IMG/VR virus record: IMGVR_UViG_3300034106_002919
Origin: an uncultured virus (IMG/VR IMGVR_UViG_3300034106_002919)
Taxonomy: Duplodnaviria; Heunggongvirae; Uroviricota; Caudoviricetes
DNA length: 64,000 nt
Strand: one strand, 5' to 3'
Shown here: positions 1-15,720 of the stretch, piece by piece
Layout of the letters: every line of letters starts with the position of its first letter
Numbering within the stretch: position 1 is the first letter of the stretch
Program-made: the position numbers and the translations under genes
Notes under the pieces: generated by a model
Told to the model about the DNA's origin: nothing
Databases searched by the model: none
What the model saw: only the letters and a program-made list of their open reading frames with translations

Positions 1-107
1 AACGGAAGAGGAATTGGAGTTTGAATTGCTTTTCCAAAAGGTTGCCCAAGAGCGTTGGATATTTACAAAGCATAGGTATGCAAGACAGAAACTTAAAGGA
101 GATAGAA

Positions 108-308
108 ATGGGTAAGGATTTTATTAAGGTATATGACCCAAATGGGTCAGAAGTTGAGTATTACTTGACCAAAGAAGAGGTTGAGCAATTGGTTCAAGAA
201 GCAAAAGAAGTGGTAGACCAGGCTTTTGATATGAATATGGATGATAGAGATCTTAGGGATATTGTTTGGGAATATCATCAGATTTTGGAGGAAAGTAGTG
301 AGTTCTAA
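108..308 (+). CDS. hypothetical acidic phage protein
   Basis: ORF 21..308; AAGGAG RBS before ATG at 108 suggests the shorter start. Confidence 0.6.
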   Translation: MGKDFIKVYDPNGSEVEYYLTKEEVEQLVQEAKEVVDQAFDMNMDDRDLRDIVWEYHQILEESSEF

Positions 309-567
309 TATCCTTACGGATATCAATGGGAAAGAGTTACCCAATAGAATTGTTGCTTCCAGAGCCATTACATACGATATGGAGAAGGTTTTGGAGGACT
401 TTGATCAGTTGGGTTTGGAGAAAACCATTGAGAATATCCAAGAAAGGATAAATACTTGGATTGAGGAAGACTTTCGGCAGCCCATTGGGAAATGGGAAGT
501 TCTAACAATGTTGCAATTCAATGATGGGGAACTTGAGGAATATTTTCCCCTTGAATTGGAGGAATAA
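298..567 (+). CDS. hypothetical acidic phage protein
   Basis: ORF 241..567; GGAGG RBS before in-frame GTG at 298, overlapping the upstream stop. Confidence 0.6.
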   Translation: MSSNILTDINGKELPNRIVASRAITYDMEKVLEDFDQLGLEKTIENIQERINTWIEEDFRQPIGKWEVLTMLQFNDGELEEYFPLELEE

Positions 568-783
568 TAGGGATCTCATCTAAGATATGAATTGAAACAT
601 ATATCTGGGATAGATGGGATATGAAATATACCCTGTAGGGGGTTGAGGTAAAAAATCGGGTTGGGGATATCTATAGGAGTAAAAAGAACTATAGAGAAGA
701 GAATAGAGATATACGTCAGGTTTGTTGTCATCAAAGGGATGCTCTATTCATTTCAATCTGAGATATACATCAAATACAGTTCT

Positions 784-829
784 AAATGGGCATACGGTGT
801 ATAAACAAATAGGCATACGGTGTATAAAC
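784..829. repeat. 23-bp tandem repeat x2
   Basis: aaatgggcatacggtgtataaac / aaataggcatacggtgtataaac (1 mismatch). Confidence 0.9.
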
Positions 830-1405
830 CTCATCTTCTAAGCGTTAAATAAACCTCAAATTTATTTAACTAGACGGGAGTAAATGAATACATATAGACG
901 CTTATATGTGTTCTCTCTCTATAGGATATATTCATATCTGAAAGAATTTAACCCGAAAATAAACAAAAATTTAGTGCATAAAATAACAATAAAATGCATA
1001 AAAACACAGCAAAAGCTTACCAAAGTTGGCAATATCAATGCAAAAGTTGCATATTATTACCAGTTTTGTAAAGGGGTTATAATTTGGAATGGTATAACCC
1101 CCCCATAAAGGTCTATTTTGTCAATAATTGTTTAATACTCTCTATAGAGAATACAATAAAGGGTTGTTTAACCCAGCTTTTGAAGCATTAATTAACTCAT
1201 GCAATATCTCAGACTTATTATGAGATAATAAGTGATAAAACTTGTACAAATTACACGCCTGTAAATAGGTAAAGCATACGCTAAGGCTGGGTCTAAGAGA
1301 TTATCCCCATAATTTGTAATGGTATGACTCAGCATAAAGGTTAGACCTAAAATGAATTAGGAAATTCATAATCTTTTTTTTTATTTTTGGACCTGTAATC
1401 TTACA

Positions 1406-1437
1406 TACTAAAAAGATTACAGCCCTGTAATCTTACA
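1406..1437 (+). repeat. degenerate cassette-boundary element (no GC inverted repeat)
   Basis: tactaaaaagattacagccctgtaatcttaca resembles the left part of the seven full elements. Confidence 0.5.
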
Positions 1438-1612
1438 ACGGTGGTGTTTTATTTATCTAAAGCTTTATTTAAAGATTTATTTCCGCATAGGCTCGATCTT
1501 TTACTTTTTATTAAGTTGGCTTTGTAGGCATTTGCGTATCTGCTATGATGAAATTAAGCCTAGGGTAAGGTGAAGAAATTAATTAAATTTAAAAAAAGAA
1601 AAGGAAAATGAA

Positions 1613-1903
1613 ATGGAAATTGAAATCATTAAAGAATCAGAAGTTGTTTTTTCTAAAAGAGGAAGAAAAGCAAATGCTGATCCAAAAGACATTGAAATCT
1701 TCAAATCGGTAAAAATTGGTCAAATGTTCCAGATTAAGGAAATGGGAATCAATTCCGAAATGAAAGACCAAAAGGAAATTGCAAACCATAAGGCAAAAGT
1801 TGGTGCTCAAATTAGGGCAATTGCTAATGCTGCAGGTTGGGAAAAAGTTTCCGTAAAATGGACAAATAACGGAATTCCTTGCGTAATCCGTTCGGGAAAG
1901 TAA
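1613..1903 (+). CDS. family A small basic protein (KRGRK motif), copy 1; putative DNA-binding
   Basis: MEIEIIKESEVVFSKRGRK...AQIRA...V.W paralogous to 2554-2847 and 3432-3707; AAGGA RBS; own terminator. Confidence 0.85.
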   Translation: MEIEIIKESEVVFSKRGRKANADPKDIEIFKSVKIGQMFQIKEMGINSEMKDQKEIANHKAKVGAQIRAIANAAGWEKVSVKWTNNGIPCVIRSGK

Positions 1904-1942
1904 AACCCAAAAACTAAAACAAAACTTACCCAAAGCCTAAAG

Positions 1943-1975
1943 AATCCCGCTGAGAAATCGGCGGGATTTTTTTTT
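1943..1975 (+). terminator. intrinsic terminator
   Basis: aatcccgctga-gaaa-tcggcgggatt followed by T-tract. Confidence 0.9.
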
Positions 1976-2090
1976 GTCTTTAATTACTAATAAAGTAAAA
2001 GAATTCTTTGCCCATAAAGTCTCATAAAGTAATTAATTGTAATTACTTTTAATAAAGAAAAAAATAAAGCTTTTTTTGGATTCCTAAACT

Positions 2091-2162
2091 TACTAAACAG
2101 TAAGGTTACAGAGTTGTAATCTTACACGGGTGTAAGTGCCGATCAAAGCATCGGAACACCCG
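2091..2162 (+). repeat. cassette-boundary element 1
   Basis: tactaaa + agtaaggttaca-gagt-tgtaatcttaca + cgggtgt...acacccg (36 bp). Confidence 0.85.
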
Positions 2163-2356
2163 CCTGTAAGGTTACGGACTTGTAAGGTAGGAATTGTAAT
2201 CTTACACAAGCCCATAAAGGTTACAAAAATGAAAGATTGGGTAATAAATAAAGTAAAGAAAAAACAAATGTTAAAAAGTTACAGCTCTGTAATCTTACTC
2301 CATCCTGGCTAACAAGCTTGTAAGATAACGATCTTGTAAGTTTTCAGGGGCATAAG

Positions 2357-2387
2357 AAAAGGGGAGAGGGCAACCGCCCTCTCCCCT
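2357..2387 (-). terminator. intrinsic terminator for minus-strand unit
   Basis: aggggagagggc-aacc-gccctctcccct with A-run on the left (U-tract on minus strand). Confidence 0.85.
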
Positions 2388-2553
2388 ACAAGGTTGTAAG
2401 TGTACGGACTTGTTAGTCGCGCTTACAACTTCTTACCCTTCGGAAGTGTGACACGCTATCGGAACCGCTTGGGCAGTAACTTACAAAGTTGCGAGTTTTG
2501 TATTACTTACCTAGCAGTCTCCCCGATAAGGTATAAGAAGTAAGTCGAGAAAC

Positions 2554-2847
2554 TTACTTCTTTGTCACTTTTGCTGGCATTACCTGCGGAACGGAACTAC
2601 CGTTCTTATCCGCTGGTGACCATACAACTTTGACCTTACGGTTGACTGCCGTACCTGCCGCGCGAATTTGCGCCGAGATACGAGCCTTGTCAACTTTGTA
2701 AGTTTCCAGAGTTGTATTGACTGCCAGACTAGGAAGTCTGAACGCATTACCTTTTGCGATAGCGTCTGCAACATTCTGGTCAAATGTCGCTTTCCGCCCC
2801 CGCTTGGTGAACACAATTTCAGACTCCGAAATAATCTCAATTTCCAT
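2554..2847 (-). CDS. family A small basic protein, copy 2
   Basis: MEIEIISESEIVFTKRGRK; start moved to 2847 by paralog alignment and GGAAGGGG RBS. Confidence 0.85.
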   Translation of the reverse strand: MEIEIISESEIVFTKRGRKATFDQNVADAIAKGNAFRLPSLAVNTTLETYKVDKARISAQIRAAGTAVNRKVKVVWSPADKNGSSVPQVMPAKVTKK

Positions 2848-3229
2848 TGTGATTACCCCTTCCAAGTCTTACAAGGTTGTAATCGTTCACGCCTGAACGA
2901 TTAGTAAATGGTGTCGTATGGCGTGACCATTCCACGCCCATCCCCAACTACTAACACGGACACCCGACGCGCCTAATGCCTAAACTTCCAAGTCTGGAAG
3001 TTTCGCCTAGCGCGGACTTCGGGCTGGGGTCAACCGCTACGAACTAGCCTACCTAAACTTACAAGTCTGAACAAGCCCATAATTTGTACAATTTGTAAAA
3101 AAATAATTGGGGAAAGAATAGCATAAAGGTCTATCTTACAAGTGTGATATCTTACAAGGATCATAAAGTCCTACCCCAGAATTACATATTTGTAAACTTA
3201 CAAGCTCCATAAAGTCCGATTAGAAAAAA

Positions 3230-3301
3230 TACTAAATTGTAATCTTACAACCCTGTAAACTTACACGGGCGTAAGTTTTCTGGATAAAACTAGCACGCCC
3301 G
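3230..3301 (+). repeat. cassette-boundary element 2
   Basis: tactaaat + tgtaatcttaca-accc-tgtaaacttaca + cgggcgt...acgcccg (36 bp). Confidence 0.9.
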
Positions 3302-3384
3302 CCCGTAAGATTACAATTGTGTAATCTTACAATGTTGTAAGGAGCTGCGTGTAAGTTTGCAGCTTTGTAAGATATCAAACTTGC

Positions 3385-3417
3385 AAGAAAGGGCAGGGGT
3401 CGAGCGACCCCTGCCCT
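3385..3417 (-). terminator. intrinsic terminator
   Basis: agggcaggggtcg-ag-cgacccctgccct just downstream of 3432-3707. Confidence 0.85.
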
Positions 3418-3431
3418 GACTTACAACCCTG

Positions 3432-3707
3432 TCAGGCAGGGCGTACTTGCGGGATTCCGTCAGGCGACCAAAGAACGGAAGACTTTTTGAATCCTGCCTC
3501 GGTCATTGCTGAGCGAATCTGCGCCGATACTCGCGCTTTATCTTTTGCGAAAGTGTCAGAGTTTGGGTCAAGTTTCATACTTGTAAGTCTAGCGACTTGA
3601 CCTTTCTTTAGACCCTTAAAGGCTTGCACCATCTTTGGGTCAGTATTTGACTTGCGACCTCGTTTTGTGAAAACGACCTCGCTTTCGCTGATAATTTCAA
3701 TATCCAT
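3432..3707 (-). CDS. family A small basic protein, copy 3
   Basis: MDIEIISESEVVFTKRGRK...DKARVSAQIR...WSPDGIPQV; leader ctaaccgaaagg. Confidence 0.85.
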   Translation of the reverse strand: MDIEIISESEVVFTKRGRKSNTDPKMVQAFKGLKKGQVARLTSMKLDPNSDTFAKDKARVSAQIRSAMTEAGFKKSSVLWSPDGIPQVRPA

Positions 3708-3931
3708 TGCCTTAGCCTTTCGGTTAGTGTTCGGGACTCATTCCCTAACAAGTAAAACACTACCTAAACTTACAAGTGGAAACTAGGTCAAATGGGCATT
3801 TTTTCTTTACTTTTTGTAAAGTTAGTGCGCTTGTGAAATCATTGTAGTCTTACAAGCTTGTCATAAAGGTGCGGGAGCTTGAATTACATTTTTAATATCT
3901 TACAAGCTTGCCAGATATGAATTCCATAAAG

Positions 3932-4003
3932 TACTAAATTGTTATCTTACAAGTATGAAAACTTACAAGGGTGTAAGCCCAGCTCACAAGCGGCTTACAC
4001 CCT
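3932..4003 (+). repeat. cassette-boundary element 3
   Basis: tactaaat + tgttatcttaca-agta-tgaaaacttaca + agggtgtaagcc...ggcttacaccct (36 bp). Confidence 0.9.
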
Positions 4004-4052
4004 CGTAAGACTACAAAGTTGTAAGATATCAAAGTTGTAAGATATCAGGATC

Positions 4053-4085
4053 AAAAGAGAAGGGCTGGTTTCCCAGCCCTTCTCT
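4053..4085 (-). terminator. intrinsic terminator
   Basis: agagaagggctgg-tttc-ccagcccttctct with A-run on the left. Confidence 0.85.
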
Positions 4086-4097
4086 CTTACAAGTCTG

Positions 4098-4301
4098 TCA
4101 GACTTCGGCAATGGTTCTAATGATACCTACCGAGGAAACAACCGTTGCCAAAACTGACAAGACTGTAAGACTGAACCACCATATTGCGCCTATGGTAGAC
4201 ATTTCAGCACCAGCAAGACTTACAAATATGTAACTTGTGTTTAGTCCTAAAACTGTTAGCAAACAAAACCCAACAAGTCTTACAAGTTTGTAACCCATCA
4301 C
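4098..4301 (-). CDS. small membrane protein (2 hydrophobic segments)
   Basis: 67 aa, two hydrophobic stretches; GTGA overlap with the upstream gene and AAAGGGGG RBS. Confidence 0.7.
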   Translation of the reverse strand: MMGYKLVRLVGFCLLTVLGLNTSYIFVSLAGAEMSTIGAIWWFSLTVLSVLATVVSSVGIIRTIAEV

Positions 4302-4705
4302 TCACCCCCTTTCGTTGCCTTGTACGCCTCAACCTCAATGACCGTGAGCATTTTATTGGTAGCGTCTTTGACAAACTTGTAAGATGGCAGGACTGTTTGG
4401 TATCCCCAAACTTGTTCAACCTTGTGTGACGCACTAATCGCAAGCGTTGCTTGACTTACAAGTATGGAAGCATTGGCAAAACTAACGGACTGCCAATTTA
4501 TTGACTTTGCGTAATCTGTCAAAACTGTAAGTCTGTGGTTCATATGGGATACGGCTTCCAACACTTCAGAACTTACAAACTTGTAAGGGTTCTTGCGGTT
4601 TTTTGTCTTTGCGGTTGTGACAGTACCCGACAGATACTTGTTCACAAACTTACAATACTGTAAGAGAAGCTTTGCTGTCTCTTGACTTACAACTTCGTTA
4701 CTCAT
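4298..4705 (-). CDS. hypothetical protein, coding sequence rich in CTTACAA/TTGTAAG motifs
   Basis: 135 aa ORF with ctaccgaaagga leader and sigma70-type promoter. Confidence 0.75.
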   Translation of the reverse strand: MSNEVVSQETAKLLLQYCKFVNKYLSGTVTTAKTKNRKNPYKFVSSEVLEAVSHMNHRLTVLTDYAKSINWQSVSFANASILVSQATLAISASHKVEQVWGYQTVLPSYKFVKDATNKMLTVIEVEAYKATKGGE

Positions 4706-4741
4706 GGGCTTATCCTTTCGGTAGGTGAACTTACAAGTACC

Positions 4742-4770
4742 ACTCTAGGCTAACTTACAAGTCAAGTCAA
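4742..4770 (-). promoter_or_regulatory. sigma70/SigA-type promoter
   Basis: minus strand TTGACT-17 bp-TAGAGT upstream of 4705. Confidence 0.7.
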
Positions 4771-4883
4771 GCCTCTAAAACCCTTATTTTATAAGGCTTT
4801 GCTGGATCACTAAACTTACAAGTTTGTAATTGAATTAGAAAATCGGTAAAAAAACAAGTTTGTAAGATAGCATTACATAAAGG

Positions 4884-4954
4884 TACTAAACTCAAACTTA
4901 CATTTGTGTAAACTTACAAGGGCGTAAGGCAAGCTCACAAGCTCCTTACGCCCT
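4884..4954 (+). repeat. cassette-boundary element 4
   Basis: tactaaa + ctcaaacttaca-tttg-tgtaaacttaca + agggcgtaagg...ccttacgccct (36 bp). Confidence 0.9.
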
Positions 4955-5192
4955 CCTGCTGTAAGATTACAAATTGTGAATATCTAATCGCCCATAAAGT
5001 TTATTTTGTAACCTTACAACTAGGTAACCTTACAAGGCACTTGTAACCTTACAAGGTTGTAAAATGATCCATTGTAGCTCCGTTACATTGTCAATCTGGC
5101 GGGGCTGTAAGGATTCGCAACTGTCATAGTCCCGTGTGGTAGTTTTGGATTGTCGGGAATCCGCCCGACACCTACCCAGAAGGGGGGCAGTC

Positions 5193-5648
5193 ATGGCAAC
5201 CAAGCCTGATGCCTATTCATGGTCGGTTGTGAAACCGACAGCCAAGGCTGAGCGTTCAGCCCGTGACATTTGGGCTGAATACAACGCCCAAGCGTCTGCC
5301 AACCAAACCAAGCCATTGGCACCATCACGCTGTCTAGTCATGGCAGTCATGCTCACGCTGAATTGCATTCCCGACAATTTGCGTGATGATTGCAAATTTG
5401 ACGTGAAGGGCGACCGCTCAAAAGCAACCGACCGTTTCCGTCTTTGCAATAATTCATCTGGCAAGGCTGATTGGGTAACACGCATTGAGATTCCCGCCGT
5501 GTGTGAATCTCGTTCAGCGTCACCACGCAAAGACAATCAGTTGCGTGAATGCGTAGATTCAATCATGGAAACCATCGGCGGGCTGTACACGGTTACGCCC
5601 GACCGTAACGATGGTGATTACGCATTCATCGTGCGTGTGTCTAAGTAG
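5193..5648 (+). CDS. family B hypothetical protein, copy 1
   Basis: DRS.A..R, CE.RSA.PR..N.LRE and PDR..G..A.IVR motifs shared with 6167 and 7826; ATG at 5193 after AAGGGGGG. Confidence 0.85.
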   Translation: MATKPDAYSWSVVKPTAKAERSARDIWAEYNAQASANQTKPLAPSRCLVMAVMLTLNCIPDNLRDDCKFDVKGDRSKATDRFRLCNNSSGKADWVTRIEIPAVCESRSASPRKDNQLRECVDSIMETIGGLYTVTPDRNDGDYAFIVRVSK

Positions 5649-5660
5649 ACACAACTAAAG

Positions 5661-5697
5661 AACACCCAACCGCAAATGCGGTTGGGTGTTTTTTTTT
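5661..5697 (+). terminator. intrinsic terminator
   Basis: aacacccaaccgca-aa-tgcggttgggtgtt + T-tract. Confidence 0.9.
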
Positions 5698-5774
5698 ATC
5701 TCATGTCGAGGTGCTGCAAATTGTTTTTAGATAAATGATCATTACGCATTTACCTAAATGCGATTACATAAAAG

Positions 5775-5847
5775 TACTAAATGTAATCTTACAAGTATGT
5801 AAGATTTTGCGGGCGTGCATCCCCAGCGTAGCGACCCCTTCCGCCCG
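5775..5847 (+). repeat. cassette-boundary element 5
   Basis: tactaaatgtaatcttacaagtatgtaagattttg + cgggcg...cgcccg (38 bp); 71/73 identical to element 6. Confidence 0.9.
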
Positions 5848-6025
5848 TCTGGCTTATAAATTGTAATAGAATGATGCGGAATAAAGGTTTAGTCGTAAGA
5901 TTACAATTTTGTAATATTACAATGTGAATAGAAGTATCGCCCATAAAGTATTAAACCGTAACCTTACAGTTGTGTAAGATTACTAGGGCGTTTTGTAATC
6001 TTACAAGTTTGTAAGTAGATCAGGG

Positions 6026-6062
6026 CGAACAAGTGTTCGCTCCTTGACCGAACACTTGTTCG
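6026..6062. promoter_or_regulatory. two LexA (SOS) boxes, Gram-positive/actinobacterial type
   Basis: cgaacaagtgttcg (6026-6039) and cgaacacttgttcg (6049-6062). Confidence 0.8.
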
Positions 6063-6166
6063 GAAAACTTTTTTACAAAAAGTTAAGTGAAACTATTGAT
6101 CCAGCCTTACAAGGCTGCTAAAAATGAAGTATCGGAATAAGCCGATACCTACCAAAGGGGTTAGTT

Positions 6167-6568
6167 ATGTCAGTACCGAAGAAAGTAACGGAAGCGTTTA
6201 ATCGCTTCAACGCCGAAGCGAAAGCGAAGCAGGTCAAGCAGATAAGCGAAGCAAGGCTTCCGCTTTTTGCGCTTATCTATGCGCTGACCGTAGTGCCGAA
6301 GTCCGAAGTCGCATTCGCTGACAAGTCAGACCGAAGCCTTGCGAAAGCCCGCTTTCAGACTTCCTACGAAGCCGAAGCGAACGGAGTGAAGTGGATAGTT
6401 TCCGTCAATGTCCCCGATTATTGCGAAGCACGAAGCGCAAGTCCCCGCTGGGAAAATACGCTTCGTGAAGCGGTGAAGTCTTATGTCGCTTTATTCCCGA
6501 AGCAGGACTTCGTAATCGTTCCAGACCGAACGAACGGAGACTTCGCTTATATCGTTCGCACGAAGTAA
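6167..6568 (+). CDS. family B hypothetical protein, copy 2
   Basis: 133 aa, paralog of 5193 and 7826; leader hairpin + ctaccaaagggg. Confidence 0.85.
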   Translation: MSVPKKVTEAFNRFNAEAKAKQVKQISEARLPLFALIYALTVVPKSEVAFADKSDRSLAKARFQTSYEAEANGVKWIVSVNVPDYCEARSASPRWENTLREAVKSYVALFPKQDFVIVPDRTNGDFAYIVRTK

Positions 6569-6582
6569 GCGAAAGAAGCACG

Positions 6583-6619
6583 AAGCCCCAGCCCGAAAGG
6601 GCTGGGGCTTTTTTGTTTT
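6583..6619 (+). terminator. intrinsic terminator
   Basis: aagccccagccc-gaaa-gggctggggctt + T-tract. Confidence 0.9.
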
Positions 6620-6714
6620 CGGATTAAGTCGAGATAAAAACTTTTGTCATAAAGTGTGACAATAGATTAGATAAAGATATAGGAAATAAAATACAGGAAT
6701 CAAATTACAGGAAT

Positions 6715-6787
6715 TACTAAATGTAATCTTACAAGTGTGTAAGATTTCGCGGGCGTGCATCCCCAGCGTAGCGACCCCTTCCGCCCG
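6715..6787 (+). repeat. cassette-boundary element 6
   Basis: near-identical copy of 5775-5847. Confidence 0.9.
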
Positions 6788-6855
6788 CGATGTAATTTTA
6801 CATATTTGTAAGTTTACGATCTTGTAATCTTACAACTATGTAAGAAGCTCAGGGG

Positions 6856-6869
6856 CGAACATTTGTTCG
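6856..6869. promoter_or_regulatory. LexA (SOS) box
   Basis: cgaacatttgttcg upstream of 6973. Confidence 0.8.
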
Positions 6870-6972
6870 CAAAGCTTTTTTACAAAAAGTTAAGCAAAAG
6901 ACTTGTAAGCGGGTCTGTCATTGTGTATTGTTAATGCATAGGGATAGTCCCTACTAACCGAAAGGATTAGAC

Positions 6973-7266
6973 ATGAAAAAGAGTCAACGGGAAGTCGTTG
7001 AATTAGCAGAAGAATTGGGCATTAGTGCCGATGAACTGCTAGATGAAATGGAAGTAGGTTCACCTCTCAAGGGATTCACCGTTGCCGTTTCTTTCTCCCG
7101 ACTTCAGGATATGAAAGACTTCGGCAGAGCACTTAGCCATATCGGAGTTGGTATCTACAAGGCAGACGCTCTAGACCCTGAATGGGGCGGTCATGCAAAT
7201 AAAAACAAGTTTGTGCTGCGGGTTGTAGATTCCCCAAGCAAGCCAGAGGAATGGCGTATCGCTTAG
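6973..7266 (+). CDS. hypothetical protein, possible N-terminal HTH-like segment
   Basis: 97 aa; VVELAEELGISADELL; leader ctaaccgaaagga. Confidence 0.8.
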   Translation: MKKSQREVVELAEELGISADELLDEMEVGSPLKGFTVAVSFSRLQDMKDFGRALSHIGVGIYKADALDPEWGGHANKNKFVLRVVDSPSKPEEWRIA

Positions 7267-7272
7267 CGGGTC

Positions 7273-7311
7273 TGTAGTCCCCGACCCGCTCAGGGTCGGG
7301 GATTACAATTT
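7273..7311 (+). terminator. terminator-like hairpin
   Basis: tgtagtccccgaccc-gctca-gggtcggggattaca, weak T-tract. Confidence 0.7.
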
Positions 7312-7350
7312 CGTAAAGTTACAAATGTGAGAGAGATCAGCTACATAAAG

Positions 7351-7423
7351 TACTAAATTGTAACCTTACAGTTATGTAAGATTACAGGGGCGTAAGGATA
7401 TCTGTATATCCTCCTTACGCCCC
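7351..7423 (+). repeat. cassette-boundary element 7
   Basis: tactaaat + tgtaaccttaca-gtta-tgtaagattaca + ggggcgtaagga...tccttacgcccc (37 bp). Confidence 0.9.
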
Positions 7424-7431
7424 CCTGGAAG

Positions 7432-7577
7432 TTATCCACAGGTTATCCACAGCACTGTGGATAAAGTGAGGCTGACCTGTGGATAAAGTATGAGTTATCC
7501 ACAGAGTTATCCACAACCCAGAAGTTATCCACAGGGTTTGAATAAAGTTATCCACAGATATTCACAGGTTATCCACA
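7432..7577. promoter_or_regulatory. cluster of nine perfect DnaA boxes
   Basis: TTATCCACA at 7432, 7443, 7495, 7507, 7525, 7548, 7569; TGTGGATAA at 7456, 7478; degenerate boxes at 7537 and 7558. Confidence 0.9.
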
Positions 7578-7660
7578 CCATAAAATGTAATAGAGTTACA
7601 GGCCATAAAGGTTAACCCGTAAGGTTACACTACTGTAAGATTACGAAACTACGCCTAGAC

Positions 7661-7720
7661 CGAACACCTGTTCGCACCTCGACCGAACACTTGTTCGCAA
7701 GCTAAGCGAACACTTGTTCG
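7661..7720. promoter_or_regulatory. three LexA (SOS) boxes at 23-bp spacing
   Basis: cgaacacctgttcg 7661, cgaacacttgttcg 7684 and 7707. Confidence 0.8.
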
Positions 7721-7825
7721 CAAAAAAAAATATCAGGCTATAATAGAAATGGGGTTGATCAAGGCTTACAACTATGGTAAAAATGGTGTATCGGAATAAC
7801 CCGATATCTACCGAAAGGATAAGTC

Positions 7826-8233
7826 ATGAAAGTATCCGCCAAACTCGCAAAGGCTTTTGCGAAATACAACGCCAACGCCAAGGCTCACCAAGTCAAGCCG
7901 ATTAGCGAGGCTCGCCTACCGTTGTTCTCACTCTTGGAGAACATTGTCAAAGTCGTACCTAGCACACTCTCCGAGTTTGCGGATACGAGTGACCGTTCAA
8001 CCGCTACGGCTCGCTACCGTTCTTGTGTGGAGGCTTACGAGTCGGGCGAGTCTTGGGTAACGCTCGTAGATGTCTTTGACTTCTGCGAAGTCCGTTCTGC
8101 TAATCCTCGCTACGAGAACACTTTGCGCGAGGCTATTAACTCGTACTACTTGCTAGGCGTGAACGCTCGCTCGTTCTCCGTAGTACCCGATAGGGCAAAC
8201 GGGCAACGGGCATATATCGTTCGCACCAAGTAG
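7826..8233 (+). CDS. family B hypothetical protein, copy 3
   Basis: 135 aa; ISEARLPLF shared with 6167; leader ctaccgaaagga. Confidence 0.85.
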   Translation: MKVSAKLAKAFAKYNANAKAHQVKPISEARLPLFSLLENIVKVVPSTLSEFADTSDRSTATARYRSCVEAYESGESWVTLVDVFDFCEVRSANPRYENTLREAINSYYLLGVNARSFSVVPDRANGQRAYIVRTK

Positions 8234-8254
8234 CAAACAAAACTGACCCGCTTT

Positions 8255-8289
8255 GCGAGAGTCCTAGCCGAAAGGCTAGGACTCTTTGC
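8255..8289 (+). terminator. intrinsic terminator
   Basis: gagagtcctagcc-gaaa-ggctaggactctt. Confidence 0.8.
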
Positions 8290-8483
8290 TATTGACGCTG
8301 CGAACACACGGTCGAGAGCGGGTCTGTACCTAAGCATTACCCTCAAGAAATATATACTCAAATTTTTCCTAAAATTGGATCGGAAATAAGCCTTGAAAGC
8401 TGGGGCTAAGAAAAAATCGGGGCTAAGACAATAATAAAGACATGCAATAATCTACATAGGAGAAGGAATAAAAGTTTCGGGGT

Positions 8484-8714
8484 TTAATCTTCTTCAGGAT
8501 TGCAAACTAATAGGTTTCTAATATCTAAGAGAAGATCAAACATCTCATTGGAGGAATAAATCTCTCTAGACAATGAGAGTTCAAGATTTTCATCAATGGA
8601 ATCTAGGGCTGCCAATACATTTTCAATCAATAGTTGCTTGGGGATAACACTCACGCCCTTTTTCTTGGGGTTCTTCTTTGTGGGGTTCTTTGGTTTTTCA
8701 ATGAGTGCTTCCAT
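8484..8714 (-). CDS. hypothetical protein
   Basis: 76 aa ORF with AAGGA RBS; last gene of the minus-strand block. Confidence 0.6.
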   Translation of the reverse strand: MEALIEKPKNPTKKNPKKKGVSVIPKQLLIENVLAALDSIDENLELSLSREIYSSNEMFDLLLDIRNLLVCNPEED

Positions 8715-8821
8715 ATCCTTGTTCCATTACATATATCATATCAACAATTCCACAATTTGCATAAGTCACATAAGTCACCTGAATGCCTTGAATGCCTCTG
8801 TTAGTATCTTCCGAGGCCCAC

Positions 8822-9568
8822 TCAATTGATTTCAATGTTGAACTTTGGCTTGCTATTGTGCTGGGCAAGATTATTCTCACCCAATTTTGTTATTTCATAC
8901 CCCAAATCTTCCAATAACTTGTACAACTCCTGTCTTCTTGGTTGAAACCATTCCTTATGAGTCCAAGCCTCAAACATGATCGGAGGATACCCATTGTTTG
9001 TTAGTGTTTGAACGGCCCCACGAATCACGGCCATCTCCAAGCCCTCAACATCAATCTTTATAAGCCTTATATTTTCTATGTTGAGAGCATCAAGATATGT
9101 TGAAATCATGAATTCAACCTCACCCTTTGTTGAGGCTTCATATGCTTTTTCACGAACCTCTGGGTCAATACTGAAGGCTCCAATATTACCTTCTGTCATA
9201 TAGTTGGGTAATTGTATTTCTACCTCTTCTTCACGATCTGAAATTGCATACTCATATGCATATACATTATGTAATGAGTTTATAATTATGTTTCCGCAAA
9301 GTTGGTAATAAATAACCCTTTGAGGCTCGTATGCATTGAATTTTATATGTGGAAAGGTCTTTGCCAACGGGATTGTAAAAACTCCAAGATTTGCGCCAAT
9401 ATCCAAAACAACCCCATCTTCGCATTCAGATAGAATCGCATTGGCTATCTTTAATAATGCTTGCTCAAAACCGCCCGTGTGTCTTATGGAGTCGGAAACA
9501 ATGTCATTCTTTTTGAATAGGATAAACTTGCACCCATTTGTTTCAATAATATCAGTCTGAGGAAGCAT
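8822..9568 (-). CDS. FkbM-family methyltransferase
   Basis: VLDIGANLG, YEPQ and IKIDVEGLE motifs. Confidence 0.9.
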   Translation of the reverse strand: MLPQTDIIETNGCKFILFKKNDIVSDSIRHTGGFEQALLKIANAILSECEDGVVLDIGANLGVFTIPLAKTFPHIKFNAYEPQRVIYYQLCGNIIINSLHNVYAYEYAISDREEEVEIQLPNYMTEGNIGAFSIDPEVREKAYEASTKGEVEFMISTYLDALNIENIRLIKIDVEGLEMAVIRGAVQTLTNNGYPPIMFEAWTHKEWFQPRRQELYKLLEDLGYEITKLGENNLAQHNSKPKFNIEIN

Positions 9569-9572
9569 TTGA

Positions 9573-10202
9573 TTATCTTATCAGAATCAGGCCAGCAACT
9601 CTTGATATCCACCAACTTCTTTTTAAAGATCCAGTTCCGTTGTAATGAATACCATCACCATAAAACCAAGTTGGATTTGACTTTGCAATTGTTGCCCAAT
9701 CAAAGATATACATATTTGAATATTTTACTTTTTGTTTAATTAGCATTGAGTTCCAAATATTTGAGTTTTTTGCACTATATGTCGGCCTTGTTGGAGAATC
9801 TGACCAAACATTTATCCAAAGTACCTTTTGACCACCAATTACAAACATCATTTTATTAAAACGATCAAGCATGCCTTCTGGAGATGTTGCTGATGAATCA
9901 TTTGTCCCGAGTGCTACAACCCAACAGATGTTATCCCCCAGAGCCTCCTGATAGTGCCTCACAGTTTCTATTCCATTCATTGGGGCAGAATCACCCGAAA
10001 AGATAATTGAACGACCATTGGAGGCATTTACAACGACCTGAGAGAATCCTGCTGCCTCGTAGTCGGTCTTGATTGTTCCCATCATTGACAAAGTTGTTGA
10101 ATCACCAATATGAACAAGATAATCACATCTTTGAGTTGTTTTAATCCCTTCACAGGAAAAAGGGGTTAACAATAAAGAAATTATTAAGATTAATATTTTC
10201 AT
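9573..10202 (-). CDS. secreted SGNH/GDSL hydrolase-like protein
   Basis: signal peptide; GDS, LGTND and DGIH blocks. Confidence 0.85.
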   Translation of the reverse strand: MKILILIISLLLTPFSCEGIKTTQRCDYLVHIGDSTTLSMMGTIKTDYEAAGFSQVVVNASNGRSIIFSGDSAPMNGIETVRHYQEALGDNICWVVALGTNDSSATSPEGMLDRFNKMMFVIGGQKVLWINVWSDSPTRPTYSAKNSNIWNSMLIKQKVKYSNMYIFDWATIAKSNPTWFYGDGIHYNGTGSLKRSWWISRVAGLILIR

Positions 10203-10206
10203 CCTG

Positions 10207-10291
10207 CGGAGAGAGAGGGATTTGAACCCCCGCTATCTTGCGATAGGCCTGTTTTCAAGACAGGTGCATTAGTCCACTCTGCCATCTCTCC
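10207..10291 (-). tRNA. tRNA-Ser(UGA)
   Basis: cloverleaf GGAGAGA..., anticodon loop CTTGAAA, long variable arm, GGTTCAAATCC. Confidence 0.92.
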
Positions 10292-10348
10292 AACGAATTA
10301 ACACCATGTACAGAGCCTCACCTAAGCGGTCAATGTTAATTCTATAGG

Positions 10349-10423
<75 letters not shown>

Positions 10424-10427
10424 GCTG

Positions 10428-10500
10428 TCTGGATGGCAGGACTTGAACCTGCGACCTCCTGTTCCCAAAACAGGTGCGCTACCAACTGTGCTACATCCAG
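10428..10500 (-). tRNA. tRNA-Pro(UGG)
   Basis: CTGGATGTAGCACAGTTGGTAGCGC..., loop TTTGGGA. Confidence 0.93.
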
Positions 10501-10510
10501 CAATTCTTAA

Positions 10511-11137
10511 TCATTCTACATCGTAATGATATCTATCATCATCAGATGTTCTCCATTTATCCGCATCCTCAACATCCCATTGTCTGGTGTTAATCAGGCG
10601 ATCAATGAGGTTTACTTTCTTTGTGGTAAATGAAGGATCATAAAGTCTTACACGATTATTTGGTTGAATTGCAAAATTACCATCGTTTCTTAACATTACA
10701 TGACCGCACTTGTGCTGGCCAGGATTAGTGCTAAAACCAAGATTTGTAATATTATCATCTGGAGCATGCCAGTCTAGTGTGAATAGATATTTAGCATCTA
10801 CAAACTCCCCAGATCTGCTTACATACTTCATTCGCATATTCCTCATTGCTTGAAACTCAGTTACCGTAACATGAGGGCTGAATGAATTCCATAAGACAAG
10901 TTCATGGATATCAACTTCTGGCACATCTGGTTCAGCACAGAATGCGCTAATTGGCATTCTCCACCAAACACCTCCGTCTTCCATTAGAAAGTGAAATAAA
11001 GGACTACGGCCTTGTATTGATGCTACTCCAAAAATCATGCATGGAAAATACTTATCAAAAGAATCCTTTTGATTGCGAAGATAGTTTCCTCTTACATAAC
11101 ATTCAATTGGCGGTATATTTATATTTAGTTCTGGCAT
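10511..11137 (-). CDS. conserved-looking hypothetical phage protein
   Basis: 208 aa ORF inside the tRNA cluster; TATAAT just upstream (leaderless). Confidence 0.8.
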   Translation of the reverse strand: MPELNINIPPIECYVRGNYLRNQKDSFDKYFPCMIFGVASIQGRSPLFHFLMEDGGVWWRMPISAFCAEPDVPEVDIHELVLWNSFSPHVTVTEFQAMRNMRMKYVSRSGEFVDAKYLFTLDWHAPDDNITNLGFSTNPGQHKCGHVMLRNDGNFAIQPNNRVRLYDPSFTTKKVNLIDRLINTRQWDVEDADKWRTSDDDRYHYDVE

Positions 11138-11152
11138 GATGCCATTATACAG

Positions 11153-11226
11153 TAGGTGCAGTGAGATTTGAACTCACACTGGAAGGATTTTAAGTCCTCT
11201 GTCTCTGCCGATTGGACTATGCACCC
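11153..11226 (-). tRNA. tRNA-Leu(UAA), short variable loop
   Basis: GGGTGCATAGTCCAATCGGCAGAGAC..., loop CTTAAAA. Confidence 0.85.
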
Positions 11227-11234
11227 TTGTTCAG

Positions 11235-11316
11235 TGGGCAAAGAGGGACTTGAACCCTCACTCCGAAAGGAACAGGAACCTAAATCCTGCGCGTCTGCCA
11301 ATTTCGCCATTCGCCC
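11235..11316 (-). tRNA. tRNA-Leu(UAG)
   Basis: GGGCGAATGGCGAAATTGGCAGACGC..., loop TTTAGGT, long variable arm. Confidence 0.93.
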
Positions 11317-11320
11317 TCTG

Positions 11321-11393
11321 CTCCAACCCCAGGGCTTGAACCTGGAACCAACGGATTAACAGTCCGCTGCTCTGCCAATTGAGCTAGGTTGGA
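11321..11393 (-). tRNA. tRNA-Asn(GUU)
   Basis: TCCAACCTAGCTCAATTGGCAGAGC..., loop CTGTTAA. Confidence 0.95.
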
Positions 11394-11410
11394 TCAATCG
11401 CACTGTTGAT

Positions 11411-11704
11411 CTAATCTTTTATATTAAATTTAATGTTAATATCTAAAGAACCATCATTAGTTTCAAACTTTTCTGTTGTATCTGAAAAGTCTAGTTCTTT
11501 TACTCTTTCTTCAATTAATTGAGAAATAATAATTTTTAATTCTTCTGTTTCTTCGTCTGTCATTTTTGATTCAATATCAATGAAGTCTCTTTCATTATCA
11601 GACCAATTACTTTTCACAAACCTTCCTTTTTTTTGAATTTTATAATCAACCAGCAAATATATAATCCATCCTAAACAGGTAATAGCAATAAGGATTTCAT
11701 ACAT
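11411..11704 (-). CDS. hypothetical protein with N-terminal TM helix
   Basis: 97 aa, hydrophobic N-terminus, GAGG RBS. Confidence 0.7.
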   Translation of the reverse strand: MYEILIAITCLGWIIYLLVDYKIQKKGRFVKSNWSDNERDFIDIESKMTDEETEELKIIISQLIEERVKELDFSDTTEKFETNDGSLDINIKFNIKD

Positions 11705-11705
11705 A

Positions 11706-12317
11706 CTAATAACCTCTCAATGGCAGTAAAAACTCACATTCTTTTGTATGAGGGTCTATTCTAATAAACATCATAGCAACAACACAGTATCCAAGAATAT
11801 CAATCAAAGTGTCTACAACTGTTTCATTTGGAACAGAATTGAGTTTGCCAATATTCAAAATATTTTTAAAGTCATCACTACCAGACTTCATAAATAGATT
11901 ACTAAGTCTAGCCAATTTATCACTCAGCCTAATACAAATTCCAATAAGACCGAACTTGGAAATATTCTCAGGTCCATAATCTTTTTGTTTTCTAGTAAGA
12001 AGGTTAGCAATGCTTTCAACACGAACATCTTCTGGAGAAATATCTTGAAGAATTGAACAAGAAGTTGCTGCAATCATAAACCAATCAAAGTCATTTTGAT
12101 CAGCAATTTTTTCAGAGTTTAAGCCTTTTACAATAGGAGCAATATTTGTATCAAAATAAGTAATTAAATAGTTATACTTATCATGAGTTGTCATATCTCC
12201 TTGATCCCAGTAACACTTGTCTAATACATCGTAGACACAGTTATAACAAGCATCTTCCCAAGACTGCCTTGAATCCGTTGGATTATAAACAACCCATTTA
12301 TTTTTTCTAATTTTCAC
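11706..12317 (-). CDS. DUF1599 / nucleotide-modification-associated domain 1-like protein
   Basis: RKQKDYG...IRLSDKLARL...DTLIDILGY signature. Confidence 0.75.
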   Translation of the reverse strand: MKIRKNKWVVYNPTDSRQSWEDACYNCVYDVLDKCYWDQGDMTTHDKYNYLITYFDTNIAPIVKGLNSEKIADQNDFDWFMIAATSCSILQDISPEDVRVESIANLLTRKQKDYGPENISKFGLIGICIRLSDKLARLSNLFMKSGSDDFKNILNIGKLNSVPNETVVDTLIDILGYCVVAMMFIRIDPHTKECEFLLPLRGY

Positions 12318-12736
12318 TTTTCTTTTCTCCTTTCTTCCTCTGGGTTAAGGATTTCAAAGTTACCTCTTCCAACCTTTTTAAAGTATGCTCTATTGTTGTT
12401 AAAAAAGTTATAGAATGTAGGGAGGGTAATTCCAAGTTCTTCAACCATGTCTTTACCAGAAATTGTTTTTCCTACATTGTTTTCCAAAAATGCTTTAATG
12501 GATGAGCTCTTAGATCCTCGTTTTTTCTTTTCTTTCATCTCAATATCAAAATTATAATTTTTCCAAAACTCATTGGCTAATTCTTGATTTAAATTATAAT
12601 AATTAATTGTTTCGGTAAGCGACATTTCGTAATGATTACCAGTAAGAATTGCAGAAATAGTTCTTCTAGATTCTTGATCTAGATTTCTATTAATATTTTT
12701 AATTTCTTGGTCTAATTGCTGTCTAGAAATACCCAT
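12314..12736 (-). CDS. putative winged-HTH DNA-binding protein
   Basis: ISGKDMVEELGITLPTFYNF...FKKVGRGNFEI. Confidence 0.65.
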   Translation of the reverse strand: MGISRQQLDQEIKNINRNLDQESRRTISAILTGNHYEMSLTETINYYNLNQELANEFWKNYNFDIEMKEKKKRGSKSSSIKAFLENNVGKTISGKDMVEELGITLPTFYNFFNNNRAYFKKVGRGNFEILNPEEERRKEK

Positions 12737-12762
12737 TGTTCTCCTTTGATAGTAGGAGTATA

Positions 12763-13284
12763 TCAGGACTTTCTAGAAGGAGTCCTATTTTTTGTAGCAG
12801 TTTTTTTGGCTGGAACTTTTTTTGGTTCAATTAACTTTGGCATATCTGGAGTTGGGAATAGAGGAGCTATTGCTTCTGAAATTAGATCAATTGCTCTCTC
12901 TGATTGATATCTAACAGCAGCTTCCATTGTTTTTGAAATTGTTGGATTTGTATCATTTACATCCAAAGCCTTTACAATTTCAACAGCAACCTCTTCTATT
13001 GGAGAAAAATGACAATGAAGTAATTCATGAACAACCGTAGCTCTTAAATCTTCTGGTTTATCTTTCTTGTAATTTTTATGAAATTGCATTTTTGCTAGAT
13101 GTTGCCATTCAGTAACGCTGGTTTCAGCTAAAGCGTCTTCTGAACATGGCTGGGGGTCTATGACTATCTTCCAATTAGACAGGTTCATCATCCCCTTCAT
13201 CTTATTAACATACCTAACTAGCCAGTCATCAACTTTTGGCACTTCTTTAATTTGGTTAGGTTCTGTTTTCTTTATTGTGTTCAT
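12763..13284 (-). CDS. HExxH zincin-like metallopeptidase
   Basis: VVHELLHCH motif. Confidence 0.65.
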   Translation of the reverse strand: MNTIKKTEPNQIKEVPKVDDWLVRYVNKMKGMMNLSNWKIVIDPQPCSEDALAETSVTEWQHLAKMQFHKNYKKDKPEDLRATVVHELLHCHFSPIEEVAVEIVKALDVNDTNPTISKTMEAAVRYQSERAIDLISEAIAPLFPTPDMPKLIEPKKVPAKKTATKNRTPSRKS

Positions 13285-13357
13285 AATAAAAAATAGGCCC
13301 TTGGCCTACTGCAAAGAACTAGCGCTCTTCACAGCCCAAGGGCCTATTTAAATTTTA

Positions 13358-13573
13358 TCAGGACTTTCTGCTCTTTGCCTTTAAATGCCAAGAAATATGA
13401 TCATCTAATTTAGATGAAACATCCTTAACATCATCATGTAAAACTTTTAGTGATTCTCTTACAAACGCATGGTCTTCTTTATTTTCTTTGCGTAGTTTTT
13501 GAACAATAGCAATAACAATACCGCTAAGCCCAGTTAAACCAGCAACAATAATTGCAGACCAAGCTTCAGTCAT
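13358..13573 (-). CDS. small membrane protein
   Basis: N-terminal TM helix followed by coiled-coil (RKENKEDH...LDDHISWH). Confidence 0.75.
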   Translation of the reverse strand: MTEAWSAIIVAGLTGLSGIVIAIVQKLRKENKEDHAFVRESLKVLHDDVKDVSSKLDDHISWHLKAKSRKS

Positions 13574-13574
13574 A

Positions 13575-13964
13575 CTACTTTAGTCCAAGAATAACGTCAG
13601 CAATATCTTCAACTGACATATCAAATGAACCATATTCGCTTACATGATCTTTGAGAATCTCAATAAGATCGCTCTTCTTAACAATTTGAGCATCTAGTGG
13701 AACCTCTTTTGCTGGAGAGGCATAGCCAGCTCCAGATGTTGGTGGTTGAGCACTTCCAAACTCTGGGATATTTGTTACCTTTTTGTCTGGGTCCAATGGA
13801 ATTTCTTCCATCATGCTTTTAAGAAGATCTGTTTGTGAGTTATGCCAAGCAGCAGCCTTAATGTGGTCCTGCATTGACTCAGCAGCAGCTTTTGCCATTG
13901 ACTCATGCCAATTCTTCATAGAATCATGATCTGTAACCATTTTTTGAATATTATTATTCTTCAT
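13575..13964 (-). CDS. hypothetical protein
   Basis: 129 aa, AGGAGG RBS. Confidence 0.75.
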   Translation of the reverse strand: MKNNNIQKMVTDHDSMKNWHESMAKAAAESMQDHIKAAAWHNSQTDLLKSMMEEIPLDPDKKVTNIPEFGSAQPPTSGAGYASPAKEVPLDAQIVKKSDLIEILKDHVSEYGSFDMSVEDIADVILGLK

Positions 13965-14967: not shown

Positions 14968-14989
14968 AGTAAGTTTATTTTATCATAAA

Positions 14990-15277
14990 TTACTTATAAA
15001 TGGTATATAGATCTTCTTGTTCCCAGCGCTGAACTGGTATTTTTACATTATGAAAAGCAGCATAAGCATCATCTGATGAATAGTACATCCTTGCGTATGC
15101 TTTTCTTGCCCCTTCATCATAAACAGGGCATTCTGGGTTTGGGTCAAGATAAAGAGCCTTATATTGATAAGGATCCTCTTCCCAGTGAACTGCATTAACT
15201 ATTTTTAGCTCTTTAAAGCAGTATGGACAAATTTTTGTTGGATAAGGAAAATCCTTAATTATCCTCCCAATAATCAT
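14990..15277 (-). CDS. hypothetical protein
   Basis: 95 aa, CPYC motif. Confidence 0.7.
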   Translation of the reverse strand: MIIGRIIKDFPYPTKICPYCFKELKIVNAVHWEEDPYQYKALYLDPNPECPVYDEGARKAYARMYYSSDDAYAAFHNVKIPVQRWEQEDLYTIYK

Positions 15278-15548: not shown

Positions 15549-15550
15549 AT

Positions 15551-15649: not shown

Positions 15650-15720
15650 GACAACACCCCATCTAATAATTAATGCAATTAGATAATTCCAAGCAAGAAG
15701 TATTAGTAAAGCAACTACAA

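Follow-up and report, generated by a model that had tools for sequence, protein, structure and literature searches.

Regulatory repeats that serve as modular joints in the accessory regions of phage genomes have been a concept in print since 2010. In T4-type phages these joints are the PeSLs, which combine a promoter with a stem-loop, lie among orphan genes and mediate insertions and deletions by homologous recombination, as set out in the accessible text of two reports (PMC2839356, PMC4122927). Here we analyze a 64,000-nucleotide stretch of DNA from an uncultured tailed phage (IMG/VR record IMGVR_UViG_3300034106_002919), referred to below as the window, in which small genes form an array of eight units separated by a repeated element that combines an A/T-rich box, two palindromes and a GC-rich hairpin. 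In the reading we favor, with a probability of roughly 55%, this element acts as a composite regulatory spacer and at the same time as a point of homologous crossover, and is PeSL-type in function. The locus would then be another independent case of a lineage whose small accessory genes are kept as plug-in units, with a conserved regulatory repeat as the joint. Its carriers are uncultured siphophages from lakes, their genomes are about 95-109 kb in size, and constraint in them is stronger on the repeat than on the genes.

Like a PeSL, as far as PeSLs are covered in the accessible parts of these reports, the element is a short composite motif with a stem-loop that occurs as direct repeats between small orphan genes of a variable region, and it has an adjacent stable stem-loop, here with two hairpins per element. 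In both cases the differences between related phages include units inserted, deleted or replaced at the motif, and homologous recombination is invoked without a dedicated recombinase. There is no sequence similarity, however, and the window phage is not a T4-type myophage but a siphovirus-type phage with a DnaE-type polymerase. The element has no recognizable sigma-70 -35/-10 pair (the promoter type of the host may differ), and its two stem-loops follow the A/T box without a T-run, whereas in a PeSL a terminator hairpin precedes the promoter. It furthermore embeds 12-bp palindromic operator-like sites and keeps one orientation even beside reversed genes. From these comparisons the element appears to work like a PeSL but does not belong to that sequence family. 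New are the sequence family, the architecture of two hairpins plus palindromes, the phage group and the independence of element orientation from gene direction; the fixed orientation beside reversed genes, a covarying hairpin, a lineage-tuned palindrome and hexamers private to single genes go beyond the published PeSLs.

The stoperators of cluster A mycobacteriophages (PMC9283540) are similar in that dozens of short protein-binding-like sites, with lineage-specific variants, occur between genes and in leaders. Compared with what the accessible text of that report describes, the sites found here are symmetric 12-bp palindromes within a 7-kb region, often in pairs or triplets with a 16-bp period, and have no repressor assigned to them. 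The intergenic promoter repeats of halovirus HF2 (PMC8707807) also form conserved repeat classes with A/T-rich boxes that head gene units, but HF2 infects archaea, and the accessible part of that paper mentions no module of two hairpins. The injection-stop region of phage T5 contains eight DnaA boxes in the first-step-transfer DNA, according to the accessible part of a preprint (bioRxiv 10.1101/866236). A dense DnaA-box cluster, here of nine, likewise lies amid repeats and palindromes beside small genes of a large lytic-type siphophage; in contrast to the T5 region as described there, it is situated between two gene units, is not conserved in relatives and comes with no evidence of a terminal repeat.

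A full-text literature search of the articles themselves turned up the PeSLs, the HF2 repeats, the stoperators and the T5 stop region and nothing describing the window element. The put RNAs of phage HK022 are two stem-loops placed after early promoters, and the early genes of phage T7 are separated by RNase III hairpins. With the put RNAs the element shares a length of about 65-70 nt, two adjacent stem-loops, orientation specificity and a terminator-rich region of presumably early genes, and it differs from them by its seven copies instead of two and by the lack of sequence or Rfam support.

Anatomy of the repeated element

The heptamer TACTAAA occurs on the plus strand of the array at positions 1406, 2091, 3230, 3932, 4884, 5775, 6715 and 7351. 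These are 8 of the 13 plus-strand copies present in the 64-kb window; the four reverse-strand copies all lie outside 1300-8400. A 20-nt pattern consisting of TACTAAA and the first palindrome, allowing up to 3 mismatches, gave 12 matches, all between 2091 and 7370, versus 0.16 expected from shuffled sequences. The palindrome core GTAAnnTTAC was found 33 times in the window, 32 times within 1300-8400, and CATAAAG occurred 15 times on the plus strand of the array region and never on the minus strand. The seven full copies, all on the plus strand, gave an alignment of about 82 nt with a mean column identity of 75%, and a covariance model built from them scored them at 74-91 bits. Neighboring copies are 636-1139 bp apart. 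Motif counts, alignment and covariance model confirmed the seven copies that a sequence-only reading of this DNA had listed. The degenerate eighth copy which that reading placed at 1406 is also present, but it lacks the GC hairpin, and the partial copy at 5943-6045 had been missed.

Each element starts with [C/G]ATAAAG and TACTAAA, followed by a hairpin formed by two TGTAAnnTTACA palindromes and then by a GC-rich hairpin. The 12-bp palindromes are 4 nt apart and can pair mutually as one hairpin. The second hairpin, GGGYGTAAG..loop..CTTACRCCC, follows after 0-2 nt, contains the half-sites TGTAA and TTACA within its stem and is free in both the length and the sequence of its loop. Each copy was predicted to fold into two adjacent hairpins, with fold z-scores of -2.6 to -6.8. 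The arrangement of two palindromes around four nucleotides, which the sequence-only reading had ascribed to every copy, holds for most of them, but the copies at 5775 and 6715 have no more than a half-site in place of the second palindrome, and this half-site pairs with the first palindrome. Internal mismatches have removed the inner pairs of the first hairpin in two of the seven copies, while the palindrome sequence is still kept.

The GC stem shows compensatory changes. In 67 distinct sequences from the window and related phages, 97.5% of the cells were paired, and four of the eight stem pairs had changed on both sides (e.g. U-A in 48 versus C-G in 16). The covariation score was 0.212, as compared to 0.087 in shuffles and at most 0.092 with the pairing partners slid, in an alignment that was fitted to the model and is biased toward pairing to that extent. 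Because the GC stem covaries, a single-stranded form of the element, either RNA or DNA, appears to be implied.

Conservation of the array in related phages

Related loci were obtained by an exact scan of IMG/VR for the double palindrome, which gave 20 loci on 16 contigs, and by a metagenome scan with protein A3 from the array, which gave four loci. Two of the latter were useful: L045, which is 98% identical to the window and colinear over 1.75 kb, and L047, with an A3 protein of 74% identity. Including the window (W), ten distinct arrays were compared (W, L047, L019, L008, L014, L005, L011, L016, L002 (=L006) and L013 (=L003, L004)). The covariance model detected the element in all ten arrays, with 3-7 copies in each, and the best-scoring match at each site lay on a single strand per array without exception. 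Between phages, identity is 77-86% for the element DNA, 65-70% for the DNA of conserved genes and 30-50% for the family A proteins. The element has diverged less than the genes on either side of it.

The array occupies the same genomic place in the relatives, where it adjoins a methyltransferase gene, tRNA genes and a phrog_3704 gene; its gene content varies and the flanks are common. The units follow the order A+ / A- / A- / two-gene minus unit / B-type genes, in which A and B denote the two protein families described below. The A- / A- pair with elements in between was found in all ten arrays and the preceding A+ unit in eight. The two-gene minus unit consists of F4-F7 in most relatives and of C2-C1 in the window and L047. 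Since this order is shared by phages whose proteins are only 30-50% identical, order and orientation have been kept over long divergence. The F4 product in the fourth unit is a small, very acidic protein ending in DITDELPEDILAD, beside the CxxC protein F7 (L019 12733-12978, L008, L011, L016 and others). Acidic small phage proteins are often DNA mimics.

The relatives are classed as 'linear, no end repeats', and whether the array points toward the contig end or away from it varies between records. The ratio of contig depth between the array and its right flank was about 1.2, 1.3, 0.6 and 1.1 in four runs, at low coverage and with one figure per contig. The sequence-only reading had considered a long terminal repeat; the depth ratio is not the 2x of such a repeat, a weak hint against it at this coverage.

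Gain and loss of units

Seven indels were mapped between relatives. Five of these are gains or losses of whole units bounded by elements, in three of them with the element aligned twice, which bears out the expectation of the sequence-only reading that relatives differ by whole units at the element. In L008 as compared to L019, a 1.0-kb two-gene insertion begins right after a GC hairpin and ends in a palindrome pair beside a TACTAAA. A second difference between these two arrays is an extra element with an F4-paralogue unit in L008, where the L019 element aligned twice. L016 has two extra units relative to L011, and with each of them the L011 element aligned twice. L047 has the same order as the window plus one extra C2-like unit, which lies between two elements. 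We take an element that aligns twice as the mark of unequal homologous crossover. The near-identical copies 5 and 6 and their paralogous neighbors fit tandem duplication.

Contigs of four lake runs (2020-2024) were colinear with the window across five of the seven element sites. The variant junctions at the element that the sequence-only reading proposed to look for were absent from these contigs, which is limited evidence since assembled contigs drop rare variants. Contigs ended at the near-identical copies 5769-5851 and 6709-6791, and those two boundaries were unbridged. Three joints were seen elsewhere. The joint 2287 -> 11518 occurred in one contig, with only 24 letters on one side, 11223 -> 11275 lies among tRNA genes, and 7452 -> 7494 (runs X4 and X17) is a 41-bp skip inside the DnaA-box repeats, suggesting that the number of DnaA boxes varies.

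Genes of the array

The eight units run in the directions +,-,-,-,+,+,+,+, and each has its own ribosome-binding site. A strong hairpin closes every unit, detected by a terminator scan in four cases and by folding in the other four (z -6.0 to -7.2). A shared leader, cta(a/c)cgaaagg(a/c)t(a/t)ag, precedes the start codon in four of the nine genes, and a near copy is present in B2. These results support the modular array of autonomous small-gene units proposed in the sequence-only reading, including its unit directions, leaders and terminators. Its claim of one transcription unit per interval also stood, with the addition that the unit in interval 3932-4884 holds two overlapping open reading frames (ORFs). 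The features are listed in Table 1.

Table 1. Positions of element copies, gene units and related features in the window
Feature	Position	Strand	Remarks
Degenerate element copy	1394-1440	+	a palindrome on either side of TACTAAA, GC hairpin lacking; missed by the covariance model at E<=0.01
Unit 1, family A paralogue A1 (96 aa)	1613-1903	+	terminator 1939-1972
Element copy 1	2085-2166	+	79.8 bits; fold z -5.4
Unit 2, family A paralogue A2 (97 aa)	2554-2847	-	terminator 2360-2387, minus strand
Element copy 2	3224-3305	+	86.7 bits; fold z -3.7
Unit 3, family A paralogue A3 (91 aa)	3432-3707	-	terminator hairpin inside 3380-3431, minus strand
Element copy 3	3926-4007	+	84 bits; fold z -5.1
Unit 4, two overlapping ORFs	4098-4705	-	terminator hairpin inside 4040-4097, minus strand
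Unit 4, ORF C1 (67 aa)	4098-4301	-	hydrophobic
Unit 4, ORF C2 (135 aa)	4298-4705	-	
Element copy 4	4878-4958	+	83.9 bits; fold z -6.0
Unit 5, family B paralogue B1 (151 aa)	5193-5648	+	terminator 5657-5694
Element copy 5	5769-5851	+	96% identity with copy 6 over 76 nt
Partial extra element copy	5943-6045	+	CATAAAG-TATTAAA and palindromes, no usual GC hairpin; 40.1 bits
Unit 6, family B paralogue B2 (133 aa)	6167-6568	+	contains word CGAAGC; terminator 6582-6611
Element copy 6	6709-6791	+	74.5 bits
Unit 7, orphan gene D (97 aa)	6973-7266	+	terminator hairpin inside 7267-7315
Element copy 7	7345-7427	+	91.1 bits; fold z -6.8
Nine DnaA-box nonamers (7 TTATCCACA, 2 TGTGGATAA)	7432-7577		only ones in the window; within 146 bp
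Three CGAACAnnTGTTCG palindromes	7661-7720		ahead of promoter-like site TTCGCA-16-TATAAT
Unit 8, family B paralogue B3 (135 aa)	7826-8233	+	terminator hairpin inside 8234-8300; end of array

The genes are not an arbitrary collection but include paralogues of two families, A and B. None of the nine array proteins matched Pfam or PHROGs, and the host-takeover or anti-defence role suggested for them in the sequence-only reading is putative. The family A proteins are about 90 residues long and have an invariant RGR motif in their alignment. A profile search of 1.84 billion representative sequences returned 116 small proteins, none of them named, and no sequence match was found in the PDB. With the AlphaFold2 (AF2) model of family A (pLDDT 82) a Foldseek search gave no match at E<=0.001 and a search of the Atlas led to unnamed viral clusters only. 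The family B proteins B1-B3 of the window align with the F11 and F2 families of the relatives and have an RPEN motif in common. For this family there was no credible Pfam family, no Foldseek match at E<=0.001 and nothing useful in the Atlas.

The coding sequence of C2-C1 in unit 4 contains CTTACA, the half-site of the array palindrome and here placed within genes, 11 times versus at most 6 in mononucleotide shuffles. A hairpin of the type ACCCTTAT-nnnn-ATAAGGGT followed by TTTTA, at 4770-4800 in the window, recurs in the 5' leaders of several minus-strand units and is present as well in leaders of L047, L005, L011 and L002. This hairpin may be an attenuator.

Palindromes and putative regulators

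The array palindrome is not limited to the element but also occurs in leaders, in groups of two or three with a 16-bp period. Lineages differ in its central dinucleotide, which is TC/GA in the window and L047, AC/GT in L002, L013, L011 and L016, and TA/TT in L019, L008 and L014. When 185,579 species genomes were scanned for exact copies of the double palindrome, only 23 scattered loci were obtained, mostly in Streptococcus and none with a lake taxon in its title. With the double palindrome so scattered and no lake taxon among the hits, recognition of TGTAAnnTTACA by a host transcription factor was dropped. Confinement to the array, tuning to the lineage and absence of recurrence in species genomes argue for a binder that is encoded by the phage rather than for a host regulator. 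The palindrome would then be the operator of a phage-encoded dimer, for which family A, present alongside the palindrome in all of the arrays, is the obvious candidate.

A second palindrome, CGAACAnnTGTTCG, was found only in the window phage. Apart from the three copies in Table 1, it is present at 6026, 6049 and 6856, and all six copies lie upstream of the phage's own B2, D and B3 units. It resembles the LexA box of Gram-positive bacteria or actinobacteria (Cheo-box-like) and may be a LexA site, but it is restricted to this phage and these units. Two of the copies precede runs of A and then T, and both are scored as terminator-like by the terminator scan. As to transcription proteins of the phage, Sigma70_r2 gave a single match, below the family cut-off and in one incomplete relative, and T7-type RNA polymerase (PF00940) gave none in the relatives, with an equally silent control.

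Functional interpretation

If the element is a regulatory spacer and crossover point, the array would consist of autonomous mini-units, each equipped with start signals of its own, the common ribosome-binding leader, a small gene or a pair of them and, at the end, a strong terminator. The spacer would occur once per unit boundary and would start with an oriented A/T-rich box, [C/G]ATAAAG plus TACTAAA, as a possible start signal off the -35/-10 consensus. The pair of 12-bp TGTAAnnTTACA palindromes, which we read as operators because the same palindrome is scattered through the leaders, would bind a dimeric regulator encoded by the phage, and the GC-rich stem-loop would be maintained by selection on base pairing. 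As a direct repeat of 80-130 bp every 0.6-1.1 kb, the spacer would also provide a substrate for unequal crossover of the RecA type, which we infer to duplicate, delete and occasionally replace whole units with no need for a dedicated site-specific recombinase. Such crossover would have led to the paralogue families (A x3, B x3) and to the unit-sized indels between relatives.

Several observations weigh against this interpretation. The element keeps one orientation even beside reversed genes, unlike a plain gene promoter, and this fixed orientation argues that it has a function of its own instead of serving one neighboring gene. Both hairpins lack the T-run behind them that a canonical terminator would have. 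None of the 11 promoter-like sites found by a scan for sigma-70-type -35/-10 consensus sequences lies within an element, although the promoter type of the host may differ, and fewer sites were found than the 14.7 expected. The oriented A/T boxes are conserved, but TACTAAA departs from TAnnnT in four of the seven copies and the two boxes are in swapped order in some relatives, so that the promoter function of the element is only putative. Furthermore, order and orientation are so strongly kept that any shuffling must be rare, and two of the seven indels are single-gene events inside a unit and away from any element, affecting an F4 copy and F46.

An unlikely alternative is that the element acts as RNA, either as a cis-acting two-hairpin structure (an antiterminator or a processing or stability element) or as the gene of a small non-coding RNA. 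The fixed orientation, independent of the adjacent genes, would then reflect a single rightward read-through transcript across all units, and the strong terminator at each unit end would be the obstacle that read-through has to overcome. The layout agrees with this proposal, since two stem-loops 0-2 nt apart, about 65-70 nt in total, directly follow an oriented A/T box, and the GC stem has changed in a compensatory manner, which indicates a single-stranded form. However, an Rfam search of positions 1-17000 at E<=1 returned only tRNAs and sub-threshold noise and no family for the element, and three units are antisense to the supposed transcript. The loss of inner pairs from the first hairpin in two of seven copies, with the palindrome retained, fits better with a protein site in duplex DNA.

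The same strand bias could arise if the array were a replication-control region, in which the elements are strand-specific hairpins in single-stranded DNA for priming or helicase loading. Their partners would be the DnaA-box cluster and the family B proteins, the latter as origin-binding initiators that recognize words in their own genes. We give this proposal a low probability. The uniform strand orientation whatever the direction of transcription and the covariation of the hairpin agree with it, as does the presence of helicase, primase, SSB and DnaE-type polymerase genes in the phage. The nine DnaA boxes, situated between element 7 and the B3 promoter region, are likewise in its favor, but the cluster is specific to the window phage: exact DnaA boxes number 0-1 per locus in relatives that keep the elements. 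We know of no precedent for seven priming signals within 6 kb, which also counts against it.

Over-represented hexamers that are private to single family B genes are also on the side of replication. In B2, CGAAGC occurs 10 times on the plus strand between 6214 and 6581, out of 12 copies in the whole window. Nine copies are inside the ORF, spread over all three frames, and one is in the terminator; none of 300 codon shuffles reached this count. At the homologous positions B3 uses synonymous but different codons, which give CGAGTC or GCTCGC. An excess of a private hexamer was also found in B1 and B3, with p about 0.02-0.03. Among the relatives, 4 of 5 distinct ORFs of the F11 family had private words at p<0.05, and so did 9 of 16 rows of the F2 family, counting overlapping alternative-frame ORFs. 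For F5 it was 2 of 9 ORFs, and across families A, F4, F7, F66 and F68 it was 1 of 46 (an F4 copy in L008, p=0.047). Other private words in the B-superfamily genes of the relatives are TTGCAA, AGGCAG and ACCGCC. The words have no regular spacing, which does not agree with a role in replication.

The predicted structure of B2 was confident, with a pLDDT of 89.7 and a pTM of 0.80. Its best structural neighbor is the iteron-binding initiator RepE (2z9o_A; Z 5.1, rmsd 3.8, 76 aligned residues), a weak match below the level that unrelated models typically reach, and Foldseek was empty at E<=0.001. The Pi initiator (2nra_C) gave a Z of 4.0. Judged by their titles, about 20 of the 50 rows of structural neighbors are DNA-binding proteins of the helix-turn-helix or winged-helix type.

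A related and equally doubtful idea is that the array is a control hub, composed of two families of small proteins that bind specific nucleic acid sequences, along with the sites themselves, and serving as a multi-initiator replication or host-factor-titration module. Family A would bind the TGTAAnnTTACA palindromes, the centers of which co-vary with lineage. Each of the winged-helix-like B paralogues would recognize a private hexamer that was selected into its own gene in three frames, with the CGAACAnnTGTTCG palindromes ahead of B2, D and B3 as further binding sites of the B proteins. Completed by the nine DnaA boxes and by the two-hairpin elements with their fixed strand, such a module would not be a plain set of early operons. 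The hexamers within the B genes can be likened to the origin repeats of phage lambda, which lie inside the O gene. If this idea is true, it would represent a new way of embedding protein-binding sites within coding sequence.

The integron analogy of the sequence-only reading, by which the element is the site of a site-specific recombinase that excises, inserts and inverts cassettes, is largely refuted. The array shares with attC/IntI systems the short units separated by an imperfect hairpin-forming repeat with a variable loop, the gain and loss of whole units at that repeat and the units in both directions beside a fixed-orientation element, but Phage_integrase (PF00589) and Resolvase gave no match in three near-complete relatives (controls positive in 14 of 14 and 12 of 14 genomes, respectively), the attC R/L cores GTTRRRY and RYYYAAC are absent from all seven elements including 10 nt of flank on either side, the bidirectional units carry their own promoters, ribosome-binding sites and terminators, their order and orientation are conserved across ten arrays with paralogues as content instead of captured foreign genes, the indels show the duplicated-homology signature of homologous crossover, and contigs from four runs are colinear. 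No tyrosine or serine recombinase was found among the subset of window ORFs scanned. The sequence-only reading had mentioned a RecA and a resolvase; the RecA gene is present at 60405-61319, but none of the scanned ORFs bears a resolvase label.

Phage and genomic setting

The 64-kb window is part of a tailed-phage genome, with genes for the portal (20364-21974), the major capsid protein (24064-25095), a tape-measure protein of 1891 aa (36675-42350), an exonuclease-family protein (49950-51116), which we count with RecA as recombination machinery, and the DnaE-type polymerase (55945-59334). The helicase encoded in the window is of the DnaB type, and ThyX and ribonucleotide reductase are encoded as well. 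By polymerase sequence the nearest cultured phages are Streptomyces siphophages, with an identity of only 38%. All 24 public runs listed with the array region are lake-water metagenomes. When the region was compared by blastn with 50,697 phage records, only four 85-bp matches resulted, all at chance level, and tblastn with A3 as query found nothing. The nearest record, G001 (20.7 kb), does not include the array region. The GC content of the array (2000-8400) is 43.6% as compared to 36.5% in the sequence to its right. We regard the region as a variable region of small genes, probably expressed early, in the genome of a large and uncultured siphophage from a lake.

To the right of the array, six minus-strand tRNA genes (Ser, Thr, Pro, Leu, Leu and Asn) lie at 10206-11393 around the phrog_3704 gene, annotated as 'ferredoxin'. 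The tRNA-Asn gene corresponds to a 56-bp block that is 84-88% conserved in most relatives. A second repeat family of about 37 nt was found at 1077-1113, 1307-1343, 5854-5890 and 7578-7614. It reads ATAAtTTGTAAT-N12-[C/A]ATAAAGGT, with two ATAA boxes 25 nt apart, and may be a second class of start signal.

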